The translations under genes were made by a program, and so were the position numbers. DNA of 64,000 nt, from NCBI GenBank assembly GCA_049303835.1, contig JBAQNN010000002.1, positions 94,492 through 158,491 on the forward strand, in the 5' to 3' direction. The notes under the pieces are model-generated. The model made no database searches. It was not told the DNA's origin and saw nothing but the letters and a program-made list of their open reading frames with translations. Numbering within the stretch: the stretch's first letter is position 1; each line of letters starts with the position of its first letter. This DNA comes from Minisyncoccia bacterium (lineage in GTDB: Bacteria > Patescibacteriota > Minisyncoccia > Phycocordibacterales > UBA9973). Positions 18,109-55,089 of the stretch are shown here, piece by piece.

Positions 18109-18588
18109 ATGCGAATTTTAGGAATAGATCCGGGATATGAAAGACTTGGGGTCGCTATATTAGAAAAAAATAAAAACGGTGATAAGGAAAAAGTACTTTT
18201 TTCCGAATGTTTTAAAACTTCTGTTAAATTAGAATTTGCGGAACGATTAAATTTAATTGGCGAAGAAGTCAGAATGATTATAAAAAAATTCAAGCCGGAA
18301 GTTCTTTCCGTAGAAACTTTATTTCTAAATACCAATCATAAAACAGTCATGCGGGTGGCCGAAGCCCGCGGAGTAATAATTTATGAAGCTTCTCGTGCTC
18401 ATCTTAAAATATTTGAAGCCTCTCCCCCGCAAATAAAAATAGCGACTACCGGTTATGGTAAATCAGACAAGGCACAAATAATTAAAATGGTAAAAATGCT
18501 CGTAAAAATGGACAATTCTAAAACCTCAGATGATGAGTTGGATGCTATTGCTATAGCCATCACCGCTTTCGCACATACAAAAATTTAG
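18109..18588 (+). CDS. ruvC: crossover junction endodeoxyribonuclease RuvC
   Basis: MRILGIDPGYERLGVAIL (catalytic Asp), RNaseH-like fold length 159 aa. Confidence 0.85.
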   Translation: MRILGIDPGYERLGVAILEKNKNGDKEKVLFSECFKTSVKLEFAERLNLIGEEVRMIIKKFKPEVLSVETLFLNTNHKTVMRVAEARGVIIYEASRAHLKIFEASPPQIKIATTGYGKSDKAQIIKMVKMLVKMDNSKTSDDELDAIAIAITAFAHTKI

Positions 18589-18597
18589 TTATCCACA
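18586..18597 (+). promoter_or_regulatory. DnaA-box-like 12-mer TAGTTATCCACA (overlaps ruvC stop codon)
   Basis: Exact TTATCCACA consensus; one of four near-identical 12-mers in the window. Confidence 0.4.
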
Positions 18598-18711
18598 CGA
18601 TATATCTATTTGCTATTGCCAAGCGTTTTTTATTTTGTTACAAAGTAGGAAATTATTAGTAGGTCGCTTTCCCGCGAGAGCGGGGTAAAAATAAAATATT
18701 AAATTTTATAT

Positions 18712-18840
18712 ATGCACGACGAGGACGAAGAAATAGAAGAAGGAGGGTTTAAGGTGGGTGATGACGAAGAACTTGATTTACCTCCAGAAGGGTTAGACGA
18801 CTTTGGGTTGGATGAAGAAGACCCTGATAAAGACAGATAA
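18712..18840 (+). CDS. small highly acidic ORF (43 aa, Asp/Glu-rich), hypothetical
   Basis: MHDEDEEIEEGGFKVGDDEELDLPPEGLDDFGLDEEDPDKDR, immediately followed by a strong terminator. No homology claim. Confidence 0.25.
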   Translation: MHDEDEEIEEGGFKVGDDEELDLPPEGLDDFGLDEEDPDKDR

Positions 18841-18842
18841 AA

Positions 18843-18878
18843 ACTAAAAAACGCCCACTCGGGCGTTTTTTAGTTTTG
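18843..18878. terminator. bidirectional rho-independent terminator (AAAAAACGCCC-actc-GGGCGTTTTTT)
   Basis: Perfect GC stem flanked by A- and T-tracts; serves the + small ORF and the convergent tyrS. Confidence 0.8.
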
Positions 18879-20045
18879 TGTAACTTTCACGAATCTTTTT
18901 TTGCCGATTTTAAGCGTTAAGTTTTCTGAAACTTTTAAATTTACATCTGTAATATTAGTATTATTGCCTAAATCATGGATGGCGTTTTCTAAAACAAGTC
19001 TGCGCCATTCCCCTTTTGAAGACAACACTTTGCTCTTTACTAAAACTTCACTCAACAATTCTCCCGCGCCGGCTTTTATCTCTTCCATTTCATCCGGAAT
19101 TTCTTTTTTCTGAAAAGTTTTTACAAAGTTTTCCTCGGCCTCTTTCGCTTTTTTCTCCCCATGATAGATTTTCACAATTTCAAAAGCCAGACGCATTTTT
19201 GCATCCCGTGGGTTTTCATTTTGAGGGATTTCTAAATCAGAAATATTTGTGCAAAGTTTAAAGTATTTAGGAATAAGCTCATCACGCAAAGCCATAATCT
19301 TACCAAACATATCATTTGGTTCATCGGTTATGTTTACGACATTTCCCCAAGAAGTGGACATTTTTCTTCCGTCCGTTCCCTCCAGCATTGAAACCGTCAA
19401 AATATCCTGTTCCGGCATCCCATAGTGTTTTTGAACTGTTCTACCGGCTTTCAAATTAAACAATTGATCAAAACCCCCTATTTCCACATCTGCTTTTACA
19501 ACAACACTATCATATCCTTGCATTAGCGGATACAAAAACTCACGCAGAGATATTTCTTCTTCTTTGTCAATTCTATCTTTGAAATTACGCCTATTGGACA
19601 TTTGTTGAACAGAAAAACTCTCAGCTAGTTCTGAGATTTCTTTAAATCCTAGTTTTCCCAACCATTTACTATTGTATTTAAATTCCGTTTTCTTTAAGTC
19701 TATAATCATGCCTAGTTGTTTGGCATAATTTTTCATATTTATTTTTATTTGTTTAGCTGTGAGCATCGGACGTTTTTCCAATTTATCTGATGGGTCTCCT
19801 ATCGTGGCCGTAAAATCTCCAACTATTAAAACGACCTTATGCCCCAGGTCTTGAAATTGTTTTAGTTTTTGCAATGGCACCGCTCTTCCTAGGTGAATTT
19901 TGGGTCCGGTTGGGTCAATACCTAGTTTTACCCGAAGAACTTTTCCTGAAAGAAGCTGTTTTTTGAGGTGTTCTTTTACAAAGACATCTTCCACTCCTCG
20001 GTTTAAAATTTCATCTATTTTTTTCTCATCCGTTATCACTTTCAT
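18870..20045 (-). CDS. tyrS: tyrosine--tRNA ligase, archaeal/eukaryotic-type class I core
   Basis: GIDPTGPKIHLG (HIGH region) and KMSTS (KMSKS variant resembling archaeal KMSSS). Block pattern MQGYD...GGFDQ as in archaeal TyrRS. TrpRS cannot be fully excluded. Confidence 0.65.
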   Translation of the reverse strand: MKVITDEKKIDEILNRGVEDVFVKEHLKKQLLSGKVLRVKLGIDPTGPKIHLGRAVPLQKLKQFQDLGHKVVLIVGDFTATIGDPSDKLEKRPMLTAKQIKINMKNYAKQLGMIIDLKKTEFKYNSKWLGKLGFKEISELAESFSVQQMSNRRNFKDRIDKEEEISLREFLYPLMQGYDSVVVKADVEIGGFDQLFNLKAGRTVQKHYGMPEQDILTVSMLEGTDGRKMSTSWGNVVNITDEPNDMFGKIMALRDELIPKYFKLCTNISDLEIPQNENPRDAKMRLAFEIVKIYHGEKKAKEAEENFVKTFQKKEIPDEMEEIKAGAGELLSEVLVKSKVLSSKGEWRRLVLENAIHDLGNNTNITDVNLKVSENLTLKIGKKRFVKVTQN

Positions 20046-20063
20046 AACTCGAATAATACCACA

Positions 20064-20077
20064 TTTTCTGCTATAAT
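20064..20077 (+). promoter_or_regulatory. TTTTCTGCTATAAT extended -10 promoter, 7 nt upstream of PBP1A ATG (leaderless)
   Basis: Identical 14-mer to 9732-9745. Confidence 0.45.
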
Positions 20078-20084
20078 TCTATTA

Positions 20085-23973: not shown

Positions 23974-24212
23974 ATATTTGTTTATATCTTATATAAATAA
24001 ATTATTAGTAATATTAGTGTTGTTAATAAGTGGATAATTATTTTTATATTTATTAAATATACTTATTTTTAATTTATAAACTGAACTTAAATCTAATAAC
24101 TTTTTGTCTTATGTTTATGAAAATATTTTTTATTTTTAATTTTTCTTTTTATTCGCGTTAATTAACAGATTTTGTCTGGTTTGTTATATTGTTTTTCCCT
24201 ACTTATAAACAG
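23974..24212. promoter_or_regulatory. candidate oriC part: very AT-rich dnaA-dnaN spacer (DNA unwinding element) with an 8/9 DnaA box at 24030-24038
   Basis: Long runs of TTTTTA/ATTTTT, gtggataat = ATTATCCAC. Confidence 0.5.
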
Positions 24213-25556
24213 CTATTTAAACATAATTCTTATTTGTTCCAACTCTTGCAGCAACGAAGAATCATTTTTTAAGTCAGTTTTTATTTTTAAACAAGAGTGG
24301 ATGACTGTCGTGTGATCCTTTCCCCCCAATTTTTGTCCAATTAGCGGATAAGATACATTAAAGTCTTCTCGGAGTAGATACATGACTACTTGTCTTGCTC
24401 TGACTATTTCCTTTTTTCTTGTTTTCTCATAAATTGAAGATTCTTCCAATTTATAATATTCACTCACTATCTTTACTACATCCTTTATGGCCATGTTTTT
24501 CTTTGGTCTAAGGTTGTTTTTGAGTAGATTTTTTACCTCTACAAGCGTCAATGGTTTGTTTTTTAGTTTATATTGGCAAACAATAAGGTTAAGACTTCCT
24601 TCCAGCTCCCTGATGTTTCCCTGAACTGCCCCCGCCACGTAATCTATCACCTCCTCAGCCAAATCAACATTTAATTCACGGAGTTTAACCTTTAAAATAG
24701 CCAGACGTGACTCATATTCAGGCTCAGATATGTCAACGATCATACCAGCAGCAAAACGAGACTTTAGTCTATCCGCCAGCTCTGGAATGTAGTTTGGGTG
24801 TTTGTCTGAAGAAAAGATAATCTGTTTGTTGTTTTCATAAAAAGTGTTAAATGTGTGAAAAAGTTCTTCTTGAATTTTTTCCATTTTTCCAATGAATTGG
24901 ATATCGTCTATTATTAACAGGTCGTATTTACGATATTTTTCTTTAAAAGAATTTGCTTTGTTGTTTTGGAGTGAATTTACAAAATCTGTGGCAAATTTTT
25001 CCAAGGTCATATAGTGTACCTTTTTATTTGGATATTTTTCTTTTATTGAGTTTCCCACCGCCTGAATCAAGTGTGTTTTTCCTAGTCCAGTACCTCCATA
25101 AATAAAAAATGGGTTATATTTTGTTCCAGGAGAGTCTATTATTGCCTGGGCTGCAGCATAAGCGAGCTCATTGAAAGTTCCGACGATAAACGAATTGAAT
25201 TGATAGCGTGGATTTAGGTTGTCTTCCAGATTTATGTATAAATCTTTTAGGGGTAGTTCTTTTTCTATGGTTATTTCATTTATTGGCGCTGGTTCTTGTT
25301 TTACATTTTCTGTTTTAACAATAGTATATTCTACGGCACGCATATTTTCATAGGCATCGGCAATGGTTTTGGTTATCAATTTGTGATATTTATTGATAAG
25401 CCAGTCGCGGACGAACTCGTTTGGCACCCCAATATAAACAATACCGGTATCTTCTTTTATGATGGATGTGTTTTTAAACCAGGTACTAAAATTTGCTTTT
25501 GATATACCAGATTCTATTTCCATTAGACAACTTTTCCACAACTCTTTTGTATTCAT
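24213..25556 (-). CDS. dnaA: chromosomal replication initiator protein DnaA
   Basis: 447 aa; AAA+ GGTGLGKTHL, DDIQF, C-terminal helix-turn-helix DnaA signature (LIGQKLGGKDHTTVIHS). Confidence 0.95.
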   Translation of the reverse strand: MNTKELWKSCLMEIESGISKANFSTWFKNTSIIKEDTGIVYIGVPNEFVRDWLINKYHKLITKTIADAYENMRAVEYTIVKTENVKQEPAPINEITIEKELPLKDLYINLEDNLNPRYQFNSFIVGTFNELAYAAAQAIIDSPGTKYNPFFIYGGTGLGKTHLIQAVGNSIKEKYPNKKVHYMTLEKFATDFVNSLQNNKANSFKEKYRKYDLLIIDDIQFIGKMEKIQEELFHTFNTFYENNKQIIFSSDKHPNYIPELADRLKSRFAAGMIVDISEPEYESRLAILKVKLRELNVDLAEEVIDYVAGAVQGNIRELEGSLNLIVCQYKLKNKPLTLVEVKNLLKNNLRPKKNMAIKDVVKIVSEYYKLEESSIYEKTRKKEIVRARQVVMYLLREDFNVSYPLIGQKLGGKDHTTVIHSCLKIKTDLKNDSSLLQELEQIRIMFK

Positions 25557-25710
25557 TGTTTTTATCTTACACTATTTATAAAACAGGGGGTATATGTAAT
25601 ATCTTATTAACTATGTTGATAAGCTGTGGATAAGTTTGTTGCCGGCATGATTTGTTTATCACACAAGACTTGGATTTGATAAAAACCGGATGATGTTATA
25701 TACTACCTGT
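25557..25710. promoter_or_regulatory. dnaA upstream region with perfect DnaA box TGTGGATAA (25625-25633) and GATAAG repeats; candidate oriC part / dnaA autoregulation
   Basis: Exact reverse complement of TTATCCACA. Confidence 0.5.
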
Positions 25711-25845
25711 ATGTCACAAACATATCAACCTAAAAAGAGAAAAAGAGCAAAAGCCCATGGATTTTTAGTTAGATCTAAGACCAAAACAGGCCAAAAGGTT
25801 CTTTTAAGAAGAAGAAGAAAAGGACGAGCGAAGCTCTCTGTTTAA
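25711..25845 (+). CDS. rpmH: 50S ribosomal protein L34
   Basis: 44 aa [44 protein letters not shown]. Not in the ORF track (<60 aa). Confidence 0.9.
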
Positions 25846-27164: not shown

Positions 27165-27650
27165 ATGGATAAAAACGAGATACAAAAATTAATAACAGAA
27201 TTGATTGAAAAAACTACAGTGAAATTAAATGATGTTTCTGTGGTAGAAGACGGGCCCAAAAACATCTGGGTTGCAGTAGAGGTGAGTGAACCACACTTCT
27301 TTATTTCACACGACGGTGAAGGTTTGCAAGCCCTAAACCATATTGTTCATAGAATTATTGAAGCTAAAAACCCTTCCCCCGCACCTGGTTTAGGAGAAAA
27401 AGCAGGGCTGGGAATCCTGGTGGATGTAAATGGTTTTCAAAAAAAGCACGTGGAGAATGTCCGAGCCATAGCTCATATGATGTCTGAGAGAGCGAGATAT
27501 TTTAAATCAAACATAGAAGTTGATCCGATGTCAGCCTTTGAGCGTAGAATTGTACACGAATTTTTATCCGATGCGCCTGATCTCAAAACCGAATCCATGG
27601 GTATGGGGCGTGATCGCCGAGTAGTTATCAAATATATCGGCTCTATTTAA
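27165..27650 (+). CDS. jag: Jag/KhpB-like RNA-binding protein (KH + R3H domains)
   Basis: C-terminal R3H (ERRIVHEFLSD); canonical position after yidC. Confidence 0.7.
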   Translation: MDKNEIQKLITELIEKTTVKLNDVSVVEDGPKNIWVAVEVSEPHFFISHDGEGLQALNHIVHRIIEAKNPSPAPGLGEKAGLGILVDVNGFQKKHVENVRAIAHMMSERARYFKSNIEVDPMSAFERRIVHEFLSDAPDLKTESMGMGRDRRVVIKYIGSI

Positions 27651-29007
27651 GTTCCAATTCCCAAAGGAAAGAGTCTTTTTTGTTTACAAAAAATAGATAA
27701 TTTTCCTCTGTATCAAGCGCGAGTTTTATGCTATCTGTCTCCTCTCCTCCTTCCACAGTGGTTGGGTCTAAAAGAAGAGTCGCATTTCCGGTAGTTAAAT
27801 CTATTTTCCAGAATTGATCTCCGAAAGATACTTCTCCACGATACCAAATATCCGGATATCCCGCTCCGGTAATTACTTTAGGAACTCCACAGTAGATGAC
27901 ATCGCTCACACTTCCCCAGACACATTTTTCCGGTAAAGTCCTTACCCCAAGAACTTCTGATGTCTTTGTGTCTGTATGGTAGATACCGAGAGCTAGGTTG
28001 TTGTTTCCATAAAGAATAGATTTTCCATCTGGACTAGTGAGGGTGGTCAATCCATTTATATTGCCGAAAATTTGGTGCAAGTTTTTATTATTTATTGGGT
28101 CCACGCCATATACAAATCCGGGGACAGAAGCGGCAGGTTTTGTGGTTAAAGTCATGAGTTTGTTGTTTGGCCACTCGGGCAACCACTCGGTGAATGGTGA
28201 ATCAAAGATTTGAGATTTTTTGTTGGTGGTCAGGTTTAAAGTTGTACCCACAATATTTTCTCCGACCTCAAACAGATAAAGAATACTTCCTTTGTCTCCC
28301 GACAGGCTCACATCCCTTATGTCTTCTGGCAAGAATGTTCCAGTTATTTCATTTTCTCCTGTAGTGTCTCCCCCCAAGACTTCTTTTGGCAAATTACCGA
28401 CAAAAGTAATGATGATGTTTCCATCTTCTTTTAAATATCTCATTATCACAGACTCTCCTTTGTTGCCAAAGAATGCTTCATATACTTTAGGAATCATTGT
28501 TCCGGAAAACTTCCTTTCTTCTATTTTATCCGCGAAAGTCTGATAGATGTTTCCTGTAGCTCTATCCACATACCTTAGAGCCGACACGAATTCTGTCGCC
28601 GGTGGGGTTGGTTTTGTGGTGGTCGTTGTTTTTGGAGTTGTTTCTTCCGGGGTGGTGGTATTTTCAGCAGGAGGAGTTGTCGGCGCTACCACAGGAGGAA
28701 TTTCTACTAGTCTTTCTTTAGTATAAACAGTAAAACCAGCCACGGGCATACTGGAGACCTTTTTAAGTTTTACTTCTTCCTGCTCGGGTCCTGGCTCGTA
28801 ACCGGAGACATCAGTAGGAGTGTCTCCTTTGGGCGTCGTCGGTGATTTGCCTCCCGTTCCAAATGGATTGAATTGTGAGATAAAGTTTGTCCCCTCTCCT
28901 TCTTCTCCTAGTGTCCCCGTGCCTTGTTGTAAATATAAAAATCCAAACACTACCAGGATAGTGATGATCAGAATTATTATTAAAAGTATAAAATTTCTTT
29001 TTGACAT
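27643..29007 (-). CDS. hypothetical membrane-anchored extracellular protein (Thr/Pro-rich linker, beta-rich C-domain)
   Basis: N-terminal TM, TTPPAENTTTPEETTPKTTTTTKPTPPA linker; no recognisable family. Confidence 0.45.
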   Translation of the reverse strand: MSKRNFILLIIILIITILVVFGFLYLQQGTGTLGEEGEGTNFISQFNPFGTGGKSPTTPKGDTPTDVSGYEPGPEQEEVKLKKVSSMPVAGFTVYTKERLVEIPPVVAPTTPPAENTTTPEETTPKTTTTTKPTPPATEFVSALRYVDRATGNIYQTFADKIEERKFSGTMIPKVYEAFFGNKGESVIMRYLKEDGNIIITFVGNLPKEVLGGDTTGENEITGTFLPEDIRDVSLSGDKGSILYLFEVGENIVGTTLNLTTNKKSQIFDSPFTEWLPEWPNNKLMTLTTKPAASVPGFVYGVDPINNKNLHQIFGNINGLTTLTSPDGKSILYGNNNLALGIYHTDTKTSEVLGVRTLPEKCVWGSVSDVIYCGVPKVITGAGYPDIWYRGEVSFGDQFWKIDLTTGNATLLLDPTTVEGGEETDSIKLALDTEENYLFFVNKKDSFLWELELK

Positions 29008-29016
29008 ATGTTTTTA

Positions 29017-29994
29017 TTATCTGCCATCCACTGACCAATGCCAAGGTTCGGATGGTAAGTTAGAAAGACCGTATTTACCGGCATTTGCTTGTAGCCACAC
29101 AAAGCACTTATTATCGCGGGTTTGAATAAATTTTCCATCACACTGTAGATCAAATGCCTTGCCATGGTTGTGATTTGATTGACCTGGAAGAGCTGTGGGT
29201 GGATTACATTTTGCACTTGCGTTTTCGTAGTCTCCATTACAATATTTTATTCTTAATTGTTTCTGTTGTTCTGTAGATCTATATCCCCCACCTGTTATGT
29301 TTAATCCGGCACTTTTTGATGCAACTAGCATGGCGTTAATGTTTGAAACAATATCTTTACATGCAAACATGCTAATTTGGGTTTTTACCACTCCGGCGCT
29401 ACATCCAGATGTAACTCCTGGGGGGTTCCCAGAATCGCTTGCTATTGCGTCTGCTAGTGTTACCTCTACTGTTATTTTTTCTAAACTACTCAGATCAGTC
29501 TTTAGAATATCTGGATTTATTTGGTTTAAGATTGTCCAAGCGCCCAAAGCGAGCACAAGTCCAAAAATAGCGCCAGTGATTCTATGTTTACCGTTTTCTT
29601 TATTAGATATCAGTTCACTAGTCATATACTCCAAACCACCCACCACTATCATTATCACAGCCAACACAGCGCATATACCGATGAAAATACGTATCATTAT
29701 GTTCAAATACTCACCTATTTTGGAATTTTCTCCCTCTGCGCTTGTCGGGTCAAAGGTTTTTAGTTGTCCATCTTCACACCCAGGAGTACCTTTTTCACAA
29801 GGCAGAGGGGCTAAAAAATTATATTTCAAATCATTTTCTTGTGTAGCATTTACGCAGGACACCCCATCAGGAGCAAGTATTTTATCTCCTGTGCATTCAA
29901 CTGCCAAAACAGAGTTGGTGGAGACAAAAAAACTAAAGATTAAAAAAACCAATTGTAATGAGACTATTATCTTTTTAAGCATATCTTTTTTCAT
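29017..29994 (-). CDS. VirB2/TrbC-like pilin region fused to M15 (VanY/LAS) D-Ala-D-Ala peptidase domain
   Basis: Signal peptide, Cys-rich segment, two TM helices with Gly-rich turn (IVVGGLEYM...GAIFGLVLALGAW) as in T4SS pilins. C-terminal zinc-peptidase motif SNHNHGKAFDL plus GGGYRS. Confidence 0.45.
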   Translation of the reverse strand: MKKDMLKKIIVSLQLVFLIFSFFVSTNSVLAVECTGDKILAPDGVSCVNATQENDLKYNFLAPLPCEKGTPGCEDGQLKTFDPTSAEGENSKIGEYLNIMIRIFIGICAVLAVIMIVVGGLEYMTSELISNKENGKHRITGAIFGLVLALGAWTILNQINPDILKTDLSSLEKITVEVTLADAIASDSGNPPGVTSGCSAGVVKTQISMFACKDIVSNINAMLVASKSAGLNITGGGYRSTEQQKQLRIKYCNGDYENASAKCNPPTALPGQSNHNHGKAFDLQCDGKFIQTRDNKCFVWLQANAGKYGLSNLPSEPWHWSVDGR

Positions 29995-30980
29995 TAAAAT
30001 TCTACTCTTATTTCTTTACTTGTACCACCGAAAATTTTAAAGGTATCCTCAATCTCCAATTTTATTATAGATGTTCCCGACTGGCCCGACTGGACTGCGA
30101 GGGGCATAATATTCTTTTTATAAGCTGGCACAGCGACTTGATAATCGTTGATAAACCAATTAAATACGAGAGTCGGTATTCGTATTTCTTTAGGTGAGAT
30201 AAAATAAGGTACAGCCTCTATAATTTCATTTCCTTGTATCTTGTGTCCATCAGACAGAATCGTCTCCCAGACAGTTCCCGTAGTCGGGTTCTTTCTGTAA
30301 AATAGAATTTTTGGTTCTACTGTCCCCACAGTAATATTTGCAGCAGAAGAATATTTTTGATCTGTGGTGGAGGCCGTCACTCCTATAGTGCTAGTATCTT
30401 CCAGGTAATCATCTACATAGCTAAAAGAGTTTTTGCCATAACCGGAGGCATCTTGTTTGTTTGTATAGTCTCTCTTCCAAGCATAAACGAGGTTTTTAGA
30501 ATTTACTGTTTGGGTTCCATTTCTAATTTCTGGCATGGCCACTATTTTTATCTCGCTTCCGGTCGTCGGCATAGCCTTGCCACGATAAAAAGGTGGCACA
30601 TGAGAATCGTTTGCTTGCCAAAGGAGAGTCATAATGGATGGGCGGATCGTTATTCTCTTGTCTATAGTTCCGTCCGGTAGAGAGATAGAAGCTACGATGC
30701 TGGTCTCTTTTCCTGCCTCCGGAGCTGTAAGAGAAAAAGACTTTTTACCGATTCCAGACAAAACATTTTTCCCGTCCACAGACCATACGATGAGGACACT
30801 ATCCAGATTGCTGACATAGCTATTCAAGTTGATATTTACATTTTCATTTGGGCCAGGATTTTCCGGAGAGATGTCCACCAAGATACTACTTGAAGAAACA
30901 GCGGTTACTTCGGAAGGGAGAAAAATCCCTGTCAATAAAAGTGTTACTATTAAATATGAAAGTAAAAATCTTAATTGCAT
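29994..30980 (-). CDS. hypothetical secreted protein (signal peptide, repeated beta-rich domains)
   Basis: N-terminal signal MQLRFLLSYLIVTLLLTGIFLPSEVTA; no family recognised. Confidence 0.45.
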   Translation of the reverse strand: MQLRFLLSYLIVTLLLTGIFLPSEVTAVSSSSILVDISPENPGPNENVNINLNSYVSNLDSVLIVWSVDGKNVLSGIGKKSFSLTAPEAGKETSIVASISLPDGTIDKRITIRPSIMTLLWQANDSHVPPFYRGKAMPTTGSEIKIVAMPEIRNGTQTVNSKNLVYAWKRDYTNKQDASGYGKNSFSYVDDYLEDTSTIGVTASTTDQKYSSAANITVGTVEPKILFYRKNPTTGTVWETILSDGHKIQGNEIIEAVPYFISPKEIRIPTLVFNWFINDYQVAVPAYKKNIMPLAVQSGQSGTSIIKLEIEDTFKIFGGTSKEIRVEF

Positions 30981-31045
30981 AACTCAGCCTAATTATATCA
31001 TATCTGCTTTACAACTTTATAACTTTCAACTTTTGAACTTTATAA

Positions 31046-32893
31046 CTATTGTTTACCCTCAGTTTCCGCTCTCTCCTGCTCCTCCTTGGCTTTTCTGTTT
31101 GAAAGTATTTGGGAAGGGTCGGAAGTGATTATCTGGTCTTCAGTATAAGAAGAAATGACTTTTATGGCTACATGCTTTAGGCCGGCAAAGAATATTCCCT
31201 CCCCGAGGCCTGACTCCAAAAGCAGATATTTTTCTTCATCCGTCAGGTTGAAGGTTTTTTGTAAAATATCTATAGTGGTCGGTGATTGTTTAAGGAGAAG
31301 TTGAATAGAAGAGTTTGTAATGATGGGGACACCATAAGGAGATTTCATAAAGTCGGCGGCGTCTTGGGTGATGGTGGAAAGACCGAGATAATATTTTCTA
31401 CCTCTTTTGGCGATAGAGTATAAGAATGAAGCGGTGTCTTCAGATTTCATCATCCACCAAGCCTCATCTACTACCAAGAGGCGCTTTTTCAAATTTTTTC
31501 GTACGGTATTCCAGATATAATGCATGATGATATACATGGCGACGGGTTTTAACTCGTCTTCCATGTCGCGGACGGAAAATACTACGAATTTTTTATTGAT
31601 ATCCACATTGGACGGTCTGTTTAAGAATGTCGCCCAAGAACCCCTCGTATATTTGGCTAGTCTGGTGACGATTGAATCACTTCCATCCATCCCTCCGAGC
31701 ACCATTTCAAAATCTGACAGAAGAGGAGGTTCAATGTTTGAGAAATCAGATTCAGGAGTGATATCTTTCATCGCATAAGTTTCGGAAATAGCTCGGTCTA
31801 CCATTGAATCTTCTTCAGGGGTGAGTCCGCCTAGCATCAATCTGAAAAGCCCTACCAAGTTTATGATATTTGAACGGAGGACATCTTCGGCTGTTTCGCC
31901 TTCGTGAGGAATAGGTAAATCAAAAGGATTGATGTGGTGATCGGAAGAAAGAGAAATATTGAAATATCTTCCACCGACCGCCTCTGACAAGAACTCGTAT
32001 TCCCTTTCCGGATCTATCACTATGACATCAACATCAAACATTAAAGATCTCAAAATTTCTAGCTTAGTGGCATACGATTTTCCGGAGCCGGACTTGGCAA
32101 AGGTCACGGAGTTGTAATTCTCTAGTGAAAATCTATCAAAGATGACTAGGCTGGAATTGTGCCTGTTGATGCCGTAAAGTATTCCTTTGTTGGAAGTCAG
32201 GTCAAAAGAAATAAATGGGAATACACTACTAAGTGGTTCAGAATTCAACTTCTGATGAATACCAAGTATGTCTGTATTTATGGGTATGACGCTCTTAAAA
32301 CCGTCTTCTTGTTGGAAGAGAGCCGGTTTGATATAGATGAGTTTTGATTCAAGGATTGATTTTATCTCATTTTCTATTTTGAAAAGTTCCAACTCGTTGT
32401 CGGCATAAATGGTGATGTAAATACCCACATCAAACATTTTTTCTTGCGCTTGGATCAGATTATTGCGCAGGCCCTCTAGGTCTTGGTAGGCAGTATCAAG
32501 CATAGGGTCGCGCACCATACCCTTACTCTCTCGTACACTTATCTGACTCTGCACCTCGGCGACTTTTTTCTGAAATTGTCTCAAGACCAGAGAAGTGTCT
32601 ATCGGATGAATAAAAATTGAAATATCAAAAACTTTATCCAGATTGATTATAGGAGAGAACCAATTGTCTGTCAGAAATCTAGGATAGGAAATGATGAAAA
32701 AAGTACGAGCGATTTTATCTCCCAAGCTTATGGATTTAGACGATATTTTCAGAGCTGAAGGAGCGATGACATCTTGGAGCTCCAGGGTGGCGGATTGGTA
32801 GATTTCTTCCGGCATCACTGCCAAGACGGAAGCTCTCACTTCCTTTTCCTCCCCTCCTTTTTGTCCACCTAATAATTTTTTTAAAAAGTCCAT
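31046..32893 (-). CDS. virB4: VirB4/TraC-family type IV secretion ATPase (C-terminal 615-aa portion)
   Basis: Walker A TFAKSGSGKSY, Walker B LLVVDEAWWMM, VirB4-type N-flank ...LGDKIARTFFIISYP... Confidence 0.8.
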   Translation of the reverse strand: MDFLKKLLGGQKGGEEKEVRASVLAVMPEEIYQSATLELQDVIAPSALKISSKSISLGDKIARTFFIISYPRFLTDNWFSPIINLDKVFDISIFIHPIDTSLVLRQFQKKVAEVQSQISVRESKGMVRDPMLDTAYQDLEGLRNNLIQAQEKMFDVGIYITIYADNELELFKIENEIKSILESKLIYIKPALFQQEDGFKSVIPINTDILGIHQKLNSEPLSSVFPFISFDLTSNKGILYGINRHNSSLVIFDRFSLENYNSVTFAKSGSGKSYATKLEILRSLMFDVDVIVIDPEREYEFLSEAVGGRYFNISLSSDHHINPFDLPIPHEGETAEDVLRSNIINLVGLFRLMLGGLTPEEDSMVDRAISETYAMKDITPESDFSNIEPPLLSDFEMVLGGMDGSDSIVTRLAKYTRGSWATFLNRPSNVDINKKFVVFSVRDMEDELKPVAMYIIMHYIWNTVRKNLKKRLLVVDEAWWMMKSEDTASFLYSIAKRGRKYYLGLSTITQDAADFMKSPYGVPIITNSSIQLLLKQSPTTIDILQKTFNLTDEEKYLLLESGLGEGIFFAGLKHVAIKVISSYTEDQIITSDPSQILSNRKAKEEQERAETEGKQ

Positions 32894-32975
32894 AATTGTA
32901 TTTAGGCTTTAGCTTTTAGGCTCTAGGCTCTAGCTTTTGAGTTTGCTAATGCCTAAGGCCTAGTTGCCTAGCGCC
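32894..32975. repeat. heptamer-repeat palindromic element A ([T/C][T/C]TAGGC arrays inverted against GCCTA[A/G] arrays)
   Basis: tttaggctttagcttttaggctctaggctctagc...gcctaaggcctagttgcctagcgcc; separates the two VirB4 ORFs. Confidence 0.7.
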
Positions 32976-33614
32976 CTACTCTATTTTAATCTTACCCTCC
33001 AATTCTCCGGGGTTGAAAACTTTATAAAATACTTCCACTACTTCTTCGGTATTCAGCTGGGCCGAATTTATTCCACAACGAGACAATCCTTGCTGGATGA
33101 CAGCTACCCTCTCTTCTAGTTGAGATCTCTTCTCTTCAAAATCTATCTGTTTTGCGGCTCGCACTTCTTCTGAATTCTTTTTGGAAAATAGCTTTCCCAA
33201 TATCCCGGAATCTGATTTTAAAGTTGTACGTGAATATGGTATTACAATAAAGAAGTTTTTTGTCATGATACTGACAGATTCAGTAAAGCTTCTTATAAAC
33301 TCTATATATTCCCTAGTTTGCAACTTGATCAACGGCTCATTTTGCACTTTTACTCTGTTTTCTAAAAGGAGTAAATAAGGTCTGATGTCCAGCCTTCTGG
33401 ATTGGACTGATATCTGTACCGGAAAATCCAAGGTGTTTAAAAAATTTTGAAATTGAAGAATGGTCGCATGTTGTTCATCGGAAGATTTCAAGGATAGGTT
33501 GACCGAGTTTGCGAGTACGATGGCTCGGAGCTCACCTTCTTTTAGCACGATGATGCCATCGCGTATCTCTTTGATTGGTATAAATTCTTGTGTTGCTTTT
33601 GCTTTTAATGCCAT
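32976..33614 (-). CDS. probable VirB4 N-terminal domain encoded as a separate 212-aa ORF
   Basis: N-terminus TQEFIPIKEIRDGIIVLKEGELRAIV...SSDEQ resembles the start of Gram-positive PrgJ/TcpF-type VirB4. 212+615 aa approximates full-length VirB4. Confidence 0.45.
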   Translation of the reverse strand: MALKAKATQEFIPIKEIRDGIIVLKEGELRAIVLANSVNLSLKSSDEQHATILQFQNFLNTLDFPVQISVQSRRLDIRPYLLLLENRVKVQNEPLIKLQTREYIEFIRSFTESVSIMTKNFFIVIPYSRTTLKSDSGILGKLFSKKNSEEVRAAKQIDFEEKRSQLEERVAVIQQGLSRCGINSAQLNTEEVVEVFYKVFNPGELEGKIKIE

Positions 33615-48776: not shown

Positions 48777-48788
48777 TAGTTATCCACA
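48777..48788 (+). promoter_or_regulatory. DnaA-box-like 12-mer TAGTTATCCACA in divergent intergenic region
   Basis: Exact copy of the 18586 and 53001 12-mers. Confidence 0.4.
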
Positions 48789-49043
48789 GACCCCCCTTGT
48801 CGGATTGACTTTTGACCCTTTTTGAGCTATTCTATATCTCGTAGTCCTGGAGAGAAGTTGGGCGCGAACTGGCTGTAAGACAGAAGAGATTGTAACCATC
48901 GTGAGAACCTTTGTTTACAGAACCTATTGGTCGTCCTGTAATTCTACCCTTATTCTAAAAGGCTAGAAAAGGAAATCTCGCGAAATTTAGTTTGTTTTAT
49001 AAAACCTACAAAAAAAACAGTTAGTAAAATATTAAGGTCTATC

Positions 49044-50159
49044 TTGACGTCCTCCCTGCTATTTGGGGCCCTTTTTGTGCCTACTCGGGGGGTAGAGGCT
49101 GGAATCCTTTCCTCCCTCTCTTCTATGTTTGTGGGGGATCCAGTGTATGCACAATCTGATCCAAATATAATAAAGCCACCCCAGCCAGGCAGTAATTCTC
49201 AGAATATTGCTCTCTTGCAAGCCAACGTCTCTTCTGCCTCTGTTTTGGAAGATAAAAGTATTAATAAAGATGAGGTTTTAGATATGATAACAATAGACAC
49301 CACAAACAGTATTATTTCTGATAATGCTCTTTTGCCATCTCTGGCCGGCTTTGTCGGGGCTGATGGCATGGATGCAAATACAGATGTTTCTTTTGAAGAT
49401 ATCAGTGTTTATGTAGTAAGAAAGGGTGATTCCTTGTCCCAAATAGCTGATATGTTTGAAGTTTCTGTAAATACCATACTTTGGGCCAATGATATGAAAA
49501 AAGGCGATAAATTAGTAGAGGGAGACACACTTTTTATATTACCCGTCTCTGGACTAAAACATGTTGTAACTAAAGGACAAACCCTGAAGAGTATCGCCCA
49601 GAAATACAATGCGGATATTGGGGATATAGTCAGTTTCAATGGAATTACAGAGGATACTAAATTGGTAATTGGAGATGAATTGATCATTCCAGGCGGAGAA
49701 ATGTCTGTGGATGGGCCAGTCAAAACGACCACCGCGAAAGGTGTTGTGGCTACTGCCAAGACTTCACTGAAGAGTATTGCAGGGTACTTTATAAATCCGG
49801 TTCTAGGGGCCATCAAAACCCAAGGACTACACGGCAAAAATGCTGTTGACCTGGCTGCTCCGATAGGTACGCCGATACGTGCGGCAGCTTCCGGGACAGT
49901 TCTTCTTGCTCGTATGGGATGGAATGGAGCTTACGGAAACATGGTCATCATTCAACACCCAAATGGTACTAAAACTCTTTACAGTCATTTATCCAAGATT
50001 GCAAGCACGACAGGACAAAGTGTTTCTCAGGGAGACACTATCGGCTATGTCGGGAATTCAGGAAGAGTCAGAGCGGCCAAAGGAGGAAATGGTGCGCACT
50101 TGCACTTTGAAGTTTATAACGCCAAAAATCCCGGGGCTGATCGCTCCTGGAAGCAATAA
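49044..50159 (+). CDS. secreted peptidoglycan hydrolase: 2x LysM + M23 (LytM) peptidase domain
   Basis: LysM (VVRKGDSLSQIADMF...; VVTKGQTLKSIAQKY...), M23 motifs (HGKNAVDLAAPIGTPIRAAASG, GNSG...HLHFEV). TTG start at 49044 gives a signal-like N-terminus; the in-frame ATG at 49125 is the alternative. Confidence 0.8.
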   Translation: MTSSLLFGALFVPTRGVEAGILSSLSSMFVGDPVYAQSDPNIIKPPQPGSNSQNIALLQANVSSASVLEDKSINKDEVLDMITIDTTNSIISDNALLPSLAGFVGADGMDANTDVSFEDISVYVVRKGDSLSQIADMFEVSVNTILWANDMKKGDKLVEGDTLFILPVSGLKHVVTKGQTLKSIAQKYNADIGDIVSFNGITEDTKLVIGDELIIPGGEMSVDGPVKTTTAKGVVATAKTSLKSIAGYFINPVLGAIKTQGLHGKNAVDLAAPIGTPIRAAASGTVLLARMGWNGAYGNMVIIQHPNGTKTLYSHLSKIASTTGQSVSQGDTIGYVGNSGRVRAAKGGNGAHLHFEVYNAKNPGADRSWKQ

Positions 50160-50919: not shown

Positions 50920-50940
50920 CGTATATTAAATAAAAATAGT

Positions 50941-51002: not shown

Positions 51003-51026
51003 GATGGGTGGCTGTGGCGTGTCAGA

Positions 51027-51188: not shown

Positions 51189-51252
51189 GTTTTTCTCCTT
51201 TCCGAATTTGATACTACAATAAAGACGCCTTTTGTCAAGGATAGATTTTTTG

Positions 51253-51323
51253 TGCGGGATGGGAGAATCGAACTCCCAACCTCAGTTTGGAAAACTGACG
51301 TTTTACCATTAAACTAATCCCGC
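51253..51323 (-). tRNA. tRNA-Gly (anticodon TCC), no encoded CCA
   Basis: Acceptor GCGGGAT/ATCCCGC, D arm GTTT-AATGGTA-AAAC, anticodon loop TTTCCAA, T arm GGGAG-TTCGATT-CTCCC. Confidence 0.85.
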
Positions 51324-51377
51324 ATCTGTCTTCTAACTATATCTTTTATTTTATATTTTTTCAACCAAACTTCAGTA

Positions 51378-52307
51378 TTATTTATTTACTATAAATTCCA
51401 CCAGAACGAAAATCAGCCAGAAAATAAATAGTAGATATCCTTCTTTTTTTGAAATGGTACGGCCCGAGCGCATAAACCGAAACAAAATAAAAGAAGCTAC
51501 CACCATAAATATTCCGGTTACATAAATTATTTTTTGAGGAAAGAAAAATGGTCTTACCAATGCGAGGATTCCGACGACGATAGTCGCGTCCGCCAATACT
51601 GTTCCTAGCAAGTCCCCGACTGCCAGAGAATCATCATTTTTACGTAGAGACTTTAAAGAAAAGAAAAATTCCGGCATAGTGGTTCCCAGTCCTACGATAA
51701 ACATTCCTACTAGTATCGGACTTATTCCCAAATAATAAGCGAGAGAGGATGCCGAAGATACTGTAAAATGAGAACCAATCAACAAGATAGACATGCTAAA
51801 TATTAGCATTAATGAATTTTTACGGTAATTATTTGTTTTGTCTGAAGGAGTCTCTCCGTCAATTCCATTTTTTAAAGCTAAATAGTAAAATATTCCTCCA
51901 GTAATGATGAGCGTCAGGCCCTCAATGCGGGAAAAATATCCGTCTAAACCCAATATGAGTGGCAACAAAAGTAAAAATGGATAGACATTGTAATTTTTGA
52001 GAATTTTACTTTCAATTTTTAATCCCCTTCCGGTTAGTAAAATTAATAGAGCAAAAATCAAAGTTAGGTCCGCCACATTTGAACCAAAAAGTACGCCGAG
52101 ACCGAAAGACGGTATTCCTTCTAGTGCAGAATTTATGGCTATAAAAGTCTCAGGTAGAATTGAGATGATAGCGATGATGATAAACCCTACCGTGTATTTA
52201 GAGAGTCTAAAACTCTCTGCTAATTGTGCAGCGTACCTGGTAGCCATAGTCGCACCTTTTATAACCATAAAAAGGGCTACCGTGAAAATAAAGATATTGT
52301 TAAGCAT
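51378..52307 (-). CDS. CaCA-family Na+/Ca2+ antiporter (YrbG-like)
   Basis: Two alpha-repeat motifs (GSNVADLTLI..., GDLLGTVLADATIV). Start set at internal ATG 52307 because the longer ORF would overlap tRNA-Pro. Confidence 0.7.
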   Translation of the reverse strand: MLNNIFIFTVALFMVIKGATMATRYAAQLAESFRLSKYTVGFIIIAIISILPETFIAINSALEGIPSFGLGVLFGSNVADLTLIFALLILLTGRGLKIESKILKNYNVYPFLLLLPLILGLDGYFSRIEGLTLIITGGIFYYLALKNGIDGETPSDKTNNYRKNSLMLIFSMSILLIGSHFTVSSASSLAYYLGISPILVGMFIVGLGTTMPEFFFSLKSLRKNDDSLAVGDLLGTVLADATIVVGILALVRPFFFPQKIIYVTGIFMVVASFILFRFMRSGRTISKKEGYLLFIFWLIFVLVEFIVNK

Positions 52308-52336
52308 AAAATTGTGCGTATTGATCCTCTCTTCGT

Positions 52337-52407
52337 TCGGGCCGCTGGGAATTGAACCCAGTCTAAATGCTCCCAAAGCACTTGTACTACCGGTATACTA
52401 CGGCCCG
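52337..52407 (-). tRNA. tRNA-Pro (anticodon TGG), no encoded CCA
   Basis: Acceptor CGGGCCG/CGGCCCG, D arm GTAT-ACCGGTA-GTAC, anticodon loop TTTGGGA, T arm CTGGG-TTCAATT-CCCAG. Confidence 0.8.
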
Positions 52408-52433
52408 GATTACTTAAAAACTAAATGAGTATA

Positions 52434-52862
52434 TCATAAAATGATGTCGCTGACCACCTTTACTCTGGCTTTTTTATTTTTTAAATCCAGATATACAACC
52501 AGGAGATCCACTTGCCACTCTTTACCTTCGGAGATTTTTTCGGACAAAAGATATGTTTGAATTGTCCGTGACATTCGTTTTAGTTTCCAGGGATGCATAT
52601 TATCTTCTGGTCTGTAGTTGTTGTCTGTTGTTACATGTGAAACATTGTCTAGCGTTACACGGGAAACACTCTTTACTTCTATAAAATACAGCCTGTTATT
52701 TTTTTCAGCTATTATGTCTATCTCCCCCCATTTTTTAGTATAATTTCTTTCCAATATTGAAAAACCGTGTTTCACGAGAAACTTTTCAGCTATGTTTTCC
52801 CCAATTTCTCCTATCTTTTGGGTTTCTGATGTAAATTTTTTAGGCATTTTAATAAGTTTCAT
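52434..52862 (-). CDS. yraN: YraN-family (UPF0102) endonuclease-like protein
   Basis: GEIGENIAEKFLVKHGFSILERNYTKKWGEIDIIA...YFIEVKS matches UPF0102. GTG at 52871 or ATG at 52862 as start. Confidence 0.7.
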   Translation of the reverse strand: MKLIKMPKKFTSETQKIGEIGENIAEKFLVKHGFSILERNYTKKWGEIDIIAEKNNRLYFIEVKSVSRVTLDNVSHVTTDNNYRPEDNMHPWKLKRMSRTIQTYLLSEKISEGKEWQVDLLVVYLDLKNKKARVKVVSDIIL

Positions 52863-53000
52863 GTGTAACACGTTTCACGTGAAACACTTTACTAAATTTT
52901 AGTGTCTTTTATCATAAAACCCTTACTTTTCAACGTATTTTTGATAAAAATGATCCCAAAAGACAGTTTTGAAATGTGTCCTTTATAAACATTACTAACA

Positions 53001-53012
53001 TAGTTATCCACA
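53001..53012 (+). promoter_or_regulatory. DnaA-box-like 12-mer TAGTTATCCACA between yraN promoter region and tRNA-Gly
   Basis: Exact 12-mer. Confidence 0.4.
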
Positions 53013-53075
53013 TTTCGCAGTCTTTTTGAGTAATATCCTTTATCTGATGAGGTTTTTGATAAAGGACAAAATTTG

Positions 53076-53146
53076 TGCGGCCAGAGAGAATCGAACTCTC
53101 GTCTCATCCTTGGCAAGGACGTGTTCTACCACTAAACCATGACCGC
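53076..53146 (-). tRNA. tRNA-Gly (anticodon GCC), no encoded CCA
   Basis: Acceptor GCGGTCA/TGGCCGC (one G-U), D arm GTTT-AGTGGTA-GAAC, anticodon loop TTGCCAA, T arm GAGAG-TTCGATT-CTCTC. Confidence 0.85.
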
Positions 53147-53302
53147 TCTTTGTTTGTGAACAAGAACCAGGGATTAAAAATACTGTTTGATTATAATATT
53201 TTATTGATACTAAAGCAATTACAAAAATAGCTTGAAAAATAAGCACTATTTGCCAATATTTTCTGAATAGTGTAAAATAACAGTGTATTATTAGATAATT
53301 CT

Positions 53303-53374
53303 GCACCCGTAGTGAAATGGATATCACAACAGTCTTCGGAACTGTCGTTGGGGGTTCGAGTCCCTCCGGGTGCA
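53303..53374 (+). tRNA. tRNA-Arg (anticodon TCG), no encoded CCA
   Basis: Acceptor GCACCCG/CGGGTGC, D arm GTGA-AATGGATA-TCAC, anticodon stem ACAGT/ACTGT with loop CTTCGGA, T arm GGGGG-TTCGAGT-CCCTC. Confidence 0.75.
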
Positions 53375-53450
53375 CAAAGTGCGGGGTACTTTGTGCAAGG
53401 CGGAGCGCGACGGCGCGAGCCAGGGTCGTGCAAATTTTCAGTAGAAAATT

Positions 53451-55079
53451 ATGCCTGACCACAATAATGTTATGGAACAAGATCTAAAAAATTTAATACA
53501 AAAAATACCCAAGGAGGTTTCACATGTAACAAGTACACTAGAAGAAGCTGGTTTTGAAGTGTACCTAGTCGGCGGCTGTGTTCGCGATTTACTGATGAGC
53601 AGAGAGCCCAAAGATTGGGATGTCACTACCAATGCCAAACCGGATCAGATTATTGGTCTTTTTGAGAAAACTATTTACGAAAACACCTTTGGAACCGTAG
53701 GAGTAGTTGTTCCACGCCTGTCCGCCAAAGCCTTGGCGTCGGAGGATGAAACAACAGAAAAAGAGGTTTCACATGAAACTATGATTATTGAGGTCACTCC
53801 ATACAGAATTGAGGCAAAATATAGTGATTTTAGGCATCCAGATGAAGTAAAATTTAGTCAAAAACTAGAAGATGATCTAAAAAGACGCGATTTTGGTGTT
53901 AACGCGATGGCCCTAAGTCCTAAAGGACATCTGGTTGATTTGTTTGATGGTCTAAAGGACATCAAAGATAAGATACTTAAGGCTGTCGGAAACCCAGATG
54001 ACCGATTTGAAGAGGATGCTCTCAGAATGTTGAGAGCTGTCCGTTTTGCTTGTCAACTTGATTTTTCTGTGTCGTATGAAACAACGGAAAGTATTTTGAA
54101 AAATGCGGAATTAATAAAAAAAATTTCTGCCGAAAGAATTCGTGATGAGTTTGTAAAAATGGTTATGTCGCCGAATTCTGCGAGTGGAATGGTGATGTTG
54201 CAAAAATTTAATTTGTTAAAAAATATAATTCCGGAATTAGAAGAGGGGATAGGGTGCGAACAATCGGGCGAACACATATACGATGTTTGGAATCATTTAC
54301 TGGCCGCCCTTCAGCATGCTTCAGACAAGAATTGGCCTTTAGAAATAAGGCTTTCTGCACTTTTTCATGATATCGGGAAACCTCGTTCTAGACGAAGCAT
54401 AACTTCACCTGATGCTTTTGCTCAGTCGCTCGGTCCCTCGTTTCACTCAGCCACTCCTTCACAAAAGCATACAGGTTCAGTTTCTAAATCTAAGAAAAAA
54501 TTTACTTTTTATGGTCATGAAGTTGTCGGCGCACGGATGACAAAAAAAATAATGGAACGGTTAAAATTTTCAAACAAAGAAATTGAAGCTGTGGAAAAAC
54601 TCGTACGCAACCACATGTTCTTCTCGGACACGGAATTGATCACCCTCTCGGCGGTGCGAAGAATCATCACCAAGGTTGGGAAAGAAAACATCTGGTCTCT
54701 AATGGACGTCCGTGAGTGTGACAGGGTCGGGATGAAGAAAAAAGAAGCGCCATATCGCCTGCGGAAGTACTTTGCGATGATAGAAGAGGCACTGAGGGAC
54801 CCAATATCTGTAAGCCAATTAAAGATAAACGGCGAATTTATGCAAAAAGAGCTCGGAATTGTTCCTGGTCCCAGAATGGGGTGGATTTTGAGTGCTCTTC
54901 TAGAGGAAGTCTTAGACGCTCCGGAGAAAAATACTGTGGAACATCTCTCGGAATTAGTGAAATCTCTGAATATGCTAGGAGATGCTGAACTCAAAACTCT
55001 TGGTCTTCGTGGAAAAGAAAAAAAAGAAGAGCTTGAAGAAGAAGAAGTTGCCAAACTTCATAAAAAACACGGAGTCTAA
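53451..55079 (+). CDS. cca: CCA-adding tRNA nucleotidyltransferase with C-terminal HD domain (contains ~35-aa insertion and Lys/Glu-rich tail)
   Basis: Pol-beta-like NTase head (VYLVGGCVRDLLM...DWDV), RDF motif, HD domain (LFHDIGKP...GHEVVGA). Confidence 0.8.
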   Translation: MPDHNNVMEQDLKNLIQKIPKEVSHVTSTLEEAGFEVYLVGGCVRDLLMSREPKDWDVTTNAKPDQIIGLFEKTIYENTFGTVGVVVPRLSAKALASEDETTEKEVSHETMIIEVTPYRIEAKYSDFRHPDEVKFSQKLEDDLKRRDFGVNAMALSPKGHLVDLFDGLKDIKDKILKAVGNPDDRFEEDALRMLRAVRFACQLDFSVSYETTESILKNAELIKKISAERIRDEFVKMVMSPNSASGMVMLQKFNLLKNIIPELEEGIGCEQSGEHIYDVWNHLLAALQHASDKNWPLEIRLSALFHDIGKPRSRRSITSPDAFAQSLGPSFHSATPSQKHTGSVSKSKKKFTFYGHEVVGARMTKKIMERLKFSNKEIEAVEKLVRNHMFFSDTELITLSAVRRIITKVGKENIWSLMDVRECDRVGMKKKEAPYRLRKYFAMIEEALRDPISVSQLKINGEFMQKELGIVPGPRMGWILSALLEEVLDAPEKNTVEHLSELVKSLNMLGDAELKTLGLRGKEKKEELEEEEVAKLHKKHGV

Positions 55080-55089
55080 GTTATCCACA
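55078..55089 (+). promoter_or_regulatory. DnaA-box-like motif AAGTTATCCACA overlapping cca stop codon
   Basis: 11/12 identity to the other three copies, perfect TTATCCACA core. Confidence 0.35.

Follow-up and report, generated by a model that had tools for sequence, protein, structure and literature searches.

What does a short motif mean when it recurs in front of, behind and between unrelated bacterial genes, each time with the core of a binding site for the replication initiator DnaA? This question is raised by a stretch of 64,000 nucleotides, hereafter the window, from a Minisyncoccia bacterium (GenBank assembly GCA_049303835.1, contig JBAQNN010000002.1, positions 94,492 to 158,491 of the forward strand). 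The host group is Candidatus Nomurabacteria (Paceibacterota/Minisyncoccia) of the Candidate Phyla Radiation (CPR), in which replication control and gene regulation are almost unstudied: these organisms are uncultured and possess few recognisable transcription factors. The 12-mer TAGTTATCCACA is found exactly at 18586-18597, 48777-48788 and 53001-53012 (sites 1, 2 and 3) and is joined by AAGTTATCCACA at 55078-55089 (site 4), all four on the plus strand. The original prediction regarded these copies as an over-represented motif and placed all of them outside the origin of replication. The analysis described below leads to a reading in two parts, judged reasonably probable on the strength of the sequence and its relatives, in which the box is a promoter-proximal operator and, at 53001, the core of a candidate origin.

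Identity of the recurrent motif

The over-representation itself was confirmed. When up to one mismatch is allowed, 0.24 copies of the 12-mer are expected in the window against four found, and none of 100 shuffled sequences reached four. Each of the four copies matches the DnaA-box consensus TTATCCACA at nine positions out of nine. Perfect 9-mers occur five times in the window, the fifth being located upstream of dnaA at 25625-25633 on the minus strand; this box and an 8/9 match at 24029-24037 (-) are the two additional boxes that had been announced near dnaA. The gene context had also been described correctly, with the stop codons of ruvC and cca overlapped at sites 1 and 4, a divergent intergenic region at site 2 and the spacer between yraN and a tRNA gene at site 3.

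The comparison was then made with 160 related loci, 80 of them centered on cca and taken from species-representative genomes, which cover sites 2 to 4, and 80 centered on dnaA and taken from metagenomes, which cover site 1 and the dnaA region. In these loci and the window together (2.25 Mb), 225 distinct perfect boxes were counted where 27 are expected from base composition. As many as 192 of the 225 (85%) are intergenic, in a sequence of which 17% is intergenic, and the remaining 33, found in coding regions, correspond roughly to chance. The placement of the boxes is not random, since tandem boxes precede dnaA and dnaN and a box array occupies the point at which the skew switches. The specificity attributed to the full 12-mer was not borne out by the relatives. 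In the orthologues of sites 1 and 2 the prefix is variable (GGG, GAG, TAG, CAG, AAG, GAC) and TAG is kept only at site 3 (49 of 60), while in the boxes other than site 3 the commonest base at position -1 is G (44%), with a weak preference for A at -2 (49%). The meaningful unit is the 9-mer TTATCCACA, usually with G at -1, and the 12-mer is over-specified; because the TAG prefix varies at orthologous sites 1 and 2, the identity of the 12-mers within the window is partly preference and partly coincidence.

Another proposal took the copies for the conserved end of some small, dispersed repeat. Comparison of the four window copies showed that their flanks have nothing in common beyond the 12-mer, and the orthologous box families have no common flank beyond the box; a longer dispersed repeat or miniature inverted-repeat transposable element (MITE) was rejected on this basis. 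In favor of a repeat or of the related idea of a structured RNA are the inverted arms (TGTCCTTTAT and ATAAAGGACA) that flank site 3 and the GC-rich palindromic inserts that abut the site-1 box in some relatives. At site 3, Rfam returned only two tRNAs at both gathering and permissive thresholds, and RNAalifold applied to 34 orthologues gave weak folds of -6.3 and -3.0 kcal/mol on the two strands, with essentially no covariation; the RNA reading was rejected. Chance recurrence is excluded by the shuffles and by the conservation of the sites, and an origin of the copies in repeat ends, RNA structure or chance is altogether improbable. A box located at a stop codon could also belong to an intrinsic terminator; the scan gave no terminator at site 1 or site 4.

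The protein expected to read these boxes is encoded in the window itself, by dnaA (24213-25556, minus strand). It aligns end to end with the DnaA of Bacillus subtilis (8btg), and in this alignment its canonical domain IV keeps the RQ, P.IG and GGKDHTTVIHS motifs. Since the host DnaA retains the residues of domain IV that read the box, canonical box recognition is to be expected. We take its R-Q, P and DHTT-x-H residues to be the counterparts of the Escherichia coli base contacts R399, P423, D433, H434, T435 and H439, whose roles were reportedly established by Fujikawa et al. in 2003. In E. coli oriC, the high-affinity boxes R1 and R4 contain a 9-mer identical to TTATCCACA, which is also the general consensus. 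The R4 box reads GAGTTATCCACA and the R3 box GTAGTTATCCAAA; both share with the window boxes an AG or TAG 5' flank with G at -1. The host here is, in contrast, a CPR bacterium, and most copies are single and promoter-proximal, without clustering.

This exact agreement with the universal DnaA box, together with a recognition helix that is unaltered in the host DnaA, leaves little room for an operator of some other lineage-specific global regulator that would merely coincide with the consensus. Such a regulator might account for single promoter-proximal sites of fixed helical phase, which look like ordinary activator sites, and the slightly favored bases G (-1) and A (-2) do extend the 9-mer. 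The tandem boxes with an 11-bp period before dnaA, and those before dnaN, nevertheless stand at classical autoregulatory positions, the motif is found again next to parS, where the skew switches, and no alternative candidate protein was identified. Another regulator is therefore considered unlikely. The 12-mer is probably a full-consensus DnaA box with a weakly preferred 5' flank, and as such a predicted target of the organism's own DnaA.

A conserved module at the strand-composition switch

Site 3 belongs to a non-coding module (52863-53074) lying between yraN (-) and the gene for tRNA-Gly (-), and this module is a candidate for both oriC and centromere. No other non-coding module of the region is as well conserved. 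It was present in 67 of the 67 relatives covering it, and about 40 nt, TGTCCTTTATaAACAtTACcaACATAGTTATCCACAgTTTT, hardly vary between species with cca proteins only 69-83% identical. Same-orientation boxes follow one another on the plus strand at 52983-53012, a tract that contains site 3. Box a (TTATAAACA, 52983-52991) reads TTAT[A/G/C][A/C]ACA across relatives and becomes TTATCCACA or TTATACACA in some species; box b (TTACTAACA, 52992-53000) reads TTAC[C/T][A/C]ACA and becomes TTACCCACA in some species; box c, with the sequence TTATCCACA (53004-53012), is preceded by the spacer TAG. The few relatives without a perfect box c carry TTATCCCCA or TTTTCCACA instead. A weaker box d, 10 nt past box c, is perfect in one relative (L042) and matches at eight positions out of nine in two others (L038 and L044). 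The degenerate boxes are presumably of low affinity.

Two further kinds of sites surround this array. The repeat TGTCCTTTAT is present at 52977 (+), at 52903 (+) and 53034 (+) with one mismatch each, and at 53059 (-), the whole spanning 52903-53068, and an inverted copy AAAAGACA lies at 52958. Together with its inverse ATAAAGGACA, it brackets the boxes with four to five copies in both orientations, conserved across species without covariation, and the rest of the window shows no enrichment in it. The second element is parS. The sequence CGTTTCACGTGAAACA (52871-52886) matches the parS consensus TGTTNCACGTGAAACA at 15 of 16 positions and is located 133 bp upstream of box c; the distance is fixed at -130 to -132 bp of box c in about 55 relatives. 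Seven parS-like sites (TGTTTCACGTGAAACA) are clustered between 52629 and 53780, where the cluster reaches into the coding sequences of yraN and cca, as against 0.45 expected in the window. All relatives have kept this cluster. The cca loci contain 224 such sites, and all those measured, in 60 loci anchored on the box, fall within -543 to +1665 bp of it. None was found in 1.02 Mb of dnaA loci.

On the minus strand, a sigma-70 promoter could be drawn over site 3 (TGGATA-17-TATAAA); compared by eye, the sixth base of its -10 is not the conserved T, and the -10 changes along with box a.

A change in strand composition provides the third argument. In 98% of the loci the raw GC skew flips at site 3; being confounded by gene strand, this measure was replaced by the skew at 4-fold-degenerate sites, stratified by strand and expressed in plus-strand coordinates. 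In plus-strand genes this skew passes from -0.17 on the left of site 3 to +0.08 on the right, and in minus-strand genes from +0.01 to +0.21. The change is sharp, within ±2 kb, and present in every 2-kb bin. Computed per locus, the same-strand contrast amounts to +0.235 at site 3, with positive values in 51 of 55 loci, and to -0.040 at the dnaA-dnaN spacer, with positive values in 22 of 60. Gene strand changes at the same place, the plus strand carrying 22% of the coding bases on the left of site 3 and 53% on the right; from dnaA to site 3 the figure is 26%.

The conjunction of the parS cluster, the GC-skew step and gene strand designates the yraN-tRNA-cca spacer as the probable replichore boundary. 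This being so, the copy at 53001 can hardly be called outside the origin, as had been stated for all four: it is the core of this region's best-conserved non-coding module and coincides with the parS cluster and with the only GC-skew step of origin type. In the mechanism proposed here, the box at 53001 would anchor, with high affinity, three or four boxes placed in a row in the same orientation, and the 210-bp module as a whole, with its boxes, its parS at a fixed distance and its TGTCCTTTAT repeats, would be the site of replication initiation at the switch in strand composition. Initiation at site 3 is favored, if only slightly above an even chance, from the arrangement of these elements. DnaA binding, the sign of its regulatory effect and firing at 53 kb are all things that we infer.

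The flank of dnaA as the alternative origin

The classical location of a bacterial origin is the flank of dnaA, where the original prediction had indeed situated it. Two groups of boxes are present there. In front of dnaA, the perfect box TTATCCACA (25625-25633) is separated by a 2-nt spacer from TTATCAACA (25614-25622), the pair occupying 25614-25633 on the minus strand with a period of 11 bp. This arrangement is conserved in relatives and faces the divergent rpmH gene, which starts at 25711 (+). In front of dnaN, an element at 24000-24037 (-) combines the overlapping boxes TTATCCACT (24029-24037, 8/9) and TTATTAACA (24021-24029) with a tract resembling DnaA-trios, CTA ATA TTA CTA ATA ATT (24000-24017), that follows them. 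A basal unwinding system (BUS) is recognised by a DnaA box that departs from the consensus at no more than two positions and is separated by a spacer of up to 16 bp from three or more NAN trios (PMC8287927). The element before dnaN has this composition, under a rule that is permissive in AT-rich DNA. The likeness extends to the incC BUS of B. subtilis (PMC6669920, PMC8287927), which similarly consists of a pair of boxes followed by trios: the dnaA-dnaN spacer is built alike and directly precedes dnaN. It differs in that the element at 24.0 kb is not among the four 12-mers and that the pooled GC skew undergoes no replichore switch there.

According to this alternative, the origin would have stayed at the dnaA flank, and the module at 53 kb would be an auxiliary centromere for the loading of ParB combined with a regulatory site bound by DnaA. 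The four 12-mers would then lie outside the origin as initially announced, and the 53-kb module would loosely resemble the box clusters of B. subtilis or the datA locus of E. coli. In Vibrio cholerae, parS1 and oriC1 are tens of kb apart. A parS need only be near the origin, the V. cholerae pair being treated as two separate cis-acting sites (PMC4091711).

Several observations speak for the dnaA flank or weaken the case for site 3, and they are assembled here. In 43 of 53 relatives, tandem boxes upstream of dnaN are followed after 0-6 nt by five to seven NTN triplets, an arrangement found in about 9% of AT-rich controls; after box c of site 3, in contrast, NTN runs are no longer than in AT-rich controls. 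No defined unwinding element was found at site 3, whose flanks are AT-rich, and only one of its boxes is full, the others having one to three mismatches and the spacings being 9, 12 and 10 bp. The ancestral context rpmH-rnpA-yidC-jag/dnaA-dnaN is present. In the window taken by itself, the strand-corrected regression places the best single boundary at 22-23 kb, where the 4-fold GC skew steps up at about 22.7 kb beside dnaN (1-22600 compared with 22900-53000). Across dnaA-dnaN the TA skew at 4-fold sites increases by about 0.2; its strand-averaged values are about -0.05 on the left of dnaN, +0.15 from dnaA to site 3 and +0.02 on the right of site 3. More generally, the related loci are syntenic orthologues, in which counts are not independent events, some classes of strand and side rest on few gene families, and the promoters discussed below are predictions based on consensus.

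The step at 22-23 kb was not reproduced when the dnaA loci of 60 relatives were pooled and is treated as local noise. The bump in TA skew fits neither location and is uninformative. An origin at the dnaA flank predicts that the interval should have the GC skew and the TA skew of the region to the right of site 3, and neither matches. No pooled GC-skew step exists at dnaA-dnaN, whereas at site 3 the step is seen in genes of both strands. Replication from the dnaA flank would moreover encounter about 75% of the coding bases of the interval head-on. The boxes near dnaA are located in the compact divergent rpmH/dnaA promoter region and directly before dnaN. Many relatives have an rpmH-dnaA spacer of only some 110 nt, which two promoters and two boxes occupy completely, and the trio-like tract is equally explicable as a conserved part of the dnaN promoter. 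All the trio observations being orthologous, they count as a single evolutionary event. An origin at the dnaA flank is, on balance, possible but doubtful.

The origin at site 3 would then be separated from dnaA by about 28 kb in the window and by 21-30 kb in the three contigs that are present in both sets of loci. In E. coli as well, oriC is unlinked from dnaA and lies between gidA and mioC (PMC8287927), and the candidate at site 3 is likewise tens of kb away from dnaA. The second likeness is with Pseudomonas aeruginosa, for which parS overlapping oriC is described (PMC10419367); parS is similarly found within and around the present candidate. The module differs from both of these origins by its size of about 210 bp, by one perfect and two or three degenerate boxes, by the fixed 130 bp to parS, by the TGTCCTTTAT repeat, which has no known counterpart, and by a lack of recognisable trio or unwinding signature. 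A search of the literature yielded no oriC description for Patescibacteria or Nomurabacteria.

The dnaA and rpmH promoters (25557-25730) deserve a separate remark. The strong -10 of dnaA is 7-9 nt from the ATG, with the consensus TATAAT in most relatives and TAAGAT in the window, and rpmH shows TATACT 7 nt before its own ATG. This proximity suggests that both mRNAs may be leaderless or nearly so. In relatives with a compact arrangement, rpmH takes its -35, TTGATA, from the complementary strand of the second dnaA box (TGTTGATAA).

Boxes positioned in front of promoters

What, then, is the function of the boxes away from site 3? All of these were pooled and the surrounding sequence was searched for -35-like hexamers. 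Such hexamers peak at gaps of 6-7 and 16-18 nt from the box, on its downstream side only, with a flat control. The same layout of box and promoter recurs at several unrelated promoters in individual relatives, and sites 1 and 2 each display two gap classes that are one helical turn apart. Together with the fixed orientation, gap classes spaced in this way suggest the pattern of a regulator that depends on the face of the helix, acting at about -47 or -58.

Site 1 is a first illustration. Its box (18586-18597, 9-mer at 18589-18597, plus strand) begins in the stop codon of ruvC, which ends at 18588 with a TAG forming motif positions 1-3, and it is kept in the same orientation between ruvC and tyrS in most relatives. 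The overlap with the stop had been noticed; the spacer that follows is not empty, for it contains a conserved promoter and an open reading frame (ORF) of 42 aa. The promoter (18616-18644, +) is composed of the -35 TTGCCA (18616-18621), a 17-nt spacer with TG and the -10 TACAAA (18639-18644). The box stands 7 nt from the -35 in 27 distinct contexts; in nine others, the window among them, 18 nt separate the two. In relatives devoid of the box, the consensus TTGACA replaces TTGCCA. The ORF (18712-18840, +; GenBank hypothetical protein WA060_01110) is conserved, encodes the very acidic peptide MHDEDEEIEEGGFKVGDDEELDLPPEGLDDFGLDEEDPDKDR and is the presumed target of site 1. A Pfam search with it gave no match. 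Compared by eye with one relative (L081), its substitutions are mostly at third codon positions.

The leader of this ORF, about 70 nt within 18645-18840, holds a hairpin CCCGC-gaga-GCGGG preceded by AGGTCGCTT. Compensatory changes of the stem were seen by eye in relatives (CCCGCC/GGCGGG, CCGCC/GGCGG).

Site 2 (48777-48788, +) offers a second illustration in a divergent intergenic region, between a 775-aa gene without assigned function (-) and a gene for an M23 peptidase with LysM domains (49044-50159, +), the presumed target. The box precedes the promoter of the latter, predicted at 48805-48833 (+) with the -35 TTGACT, a 17-nt spacer and the -10 TATTCT. About 35 relatives have a perfect box ahead of their M23 orthologue, and its gap to the -35 is 6 nt in six contexts and 16 nt in 12, again with the window in the longer class.

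Between the predicted promoter and the M23 gene, a conserved 5' leader of about 200 nt (48834-49043) begins with GTAGTYCTGRAGAGAGGTA. It has no match in Rfam and may be an undescribed cis-regulatory RNA of the cell-wall hydrolase.

These cases suggest a common layout, in which a single box, always with TTATCCACA reading towards the gene, would stand 6-7 or 16-18 nt before the -35. The center of the box would then be near -47 or near -58, on one face of the helix, from where bound DnaA could modulate RNA polymerase, most likely by activation. Sites 1 and 2 and the promoters of dnaA and dnaN would form this class of promoter-proximal operators. For sites 1 and 2, which are conserved and helically phased, a DnaA regulatory site is the best reading. 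The original prediction had offered titration or regulation, and for titration no specific support was obtained: loci for the titration or reactivation of DnaA are clusters of boxes away from promoters, whereas sites 1, 2 and 4 are single and tied to promoters. Clusters of DnaA boxes in B. subtilis and the E. coli loci datA and DARS resemble the present sites in being intergenic, near the origin and off the dnaA flank; they differ by their several boxes and by defined effects on titration or nucleotide exchange.

Site 4 (55078-55089, +) is less typical. It overlaps the end of cca at 55079, where the TAA stop covers motif positions 1-2, and lies 62 nt upstream of a 181-aa ORF without assigned function. 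No clear -35 was found downstream of it. The site is lineage-specific, since the only relative with a box after cca (L072) has it in another context. It may be a young or weak example of the promoter type.

Additional boxes were detected in relatives 7-18 nt before consensus TTGACA-17-TATAAT promoters of genes absent from the window (L015 13980, L026 5065, L033 11375 (-); L075 2768, L079 20774; L119 17798; L142 20881). The predicted DnaA regulon would consequently differ between species.

Relation to known DnaA regulons and significance

The use of DnaA as a transcription factor has precedents. Genes under its control include dnaA and nrdAB in E. coli, dnaA and sda in B. subtilis, and gcrA, ftsZ and podJ in Caulobacter. 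The sites described here share with these systems the location of boxes before promoters, dnaA autoregulation included, and targets of the same kinds, namely small proteins and functions of the envelope or of division; sda of B. subtilis is a small-protein target to be compared with the 42-aa ORF. They differ by the predicted target genes and by a stricter layout, with a single box in one orientation, 6-7 or 16-18 nt from the -35, at many promoters. This strictness suggests an activation resembling that of class I.

A more far-reaching scenario can be put forward tentatively. The origin would have been relocated 21-30 kb away from dnaA into a compact module made of parS and a box array, in which the lineage-specific repeat TGTCCTTTAT would bind some factor, and the boxes and trios of the dnaA flank would survive only as promoter elements. 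DnaA would have been co-opted as a general promoter-proximal activator working from two phased positions, thereby coupling cell-wall remodelling and other genes to the state of initiation.

Every element invoked is of a known kind (DnaA boxes, promoters controlled by DnaA, parS, an origin unlinked from dnaA) and the conceptual novelty is modest. As far as the searched literature shows, four things are new: that such elements are described for this phylum at all, the strictness of the promoter grammar, the compact module combining parS, box array and local repeat, and the competition of two candidate sites of initiation. The work provides a candidate for a conserved DnaA regulon comprising dnaA, dnaN, the M23/LysM peptidase and the 42-aa acidic protein, together with a promoter grammar that can be tested. 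The candidate module for origin and centromere would probably be missed by automatic finders that favor boxes adjacent to dnaA. It bears on the choice of start points for genomes, on growth-rate estimates by iRep or peak-to-trough ratio (PTR) and on the skew-based curation of CPR genomes.

Additional features of the locus

In several relatives, GC-rich palindromic inserts of 30-80 nt (e.g. ...tccgacgcaaggtcggactccgacttcgctttgcgaacgtcggag) abut DnaA boxes on their 5' side. They are located between the ruvC stop and the site-1 box in L097, L114, L122, L133, L142, L150 and L160, and in the rpmH-dnaA spacer in L082, L090, L101, L112, L115, L129 and L153. They could be MITE-like elements or terminator hairpins of ruvC.

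The interval between dnaA and the candidate origin also houses a conserved cluster at 27643-33614 (-). It encodes a VirB4-like ATPase of conjugal transfer or type IV secretion (31046-32893), accompanied by neighbors of no assigned function, and is syntenic in all relatives.

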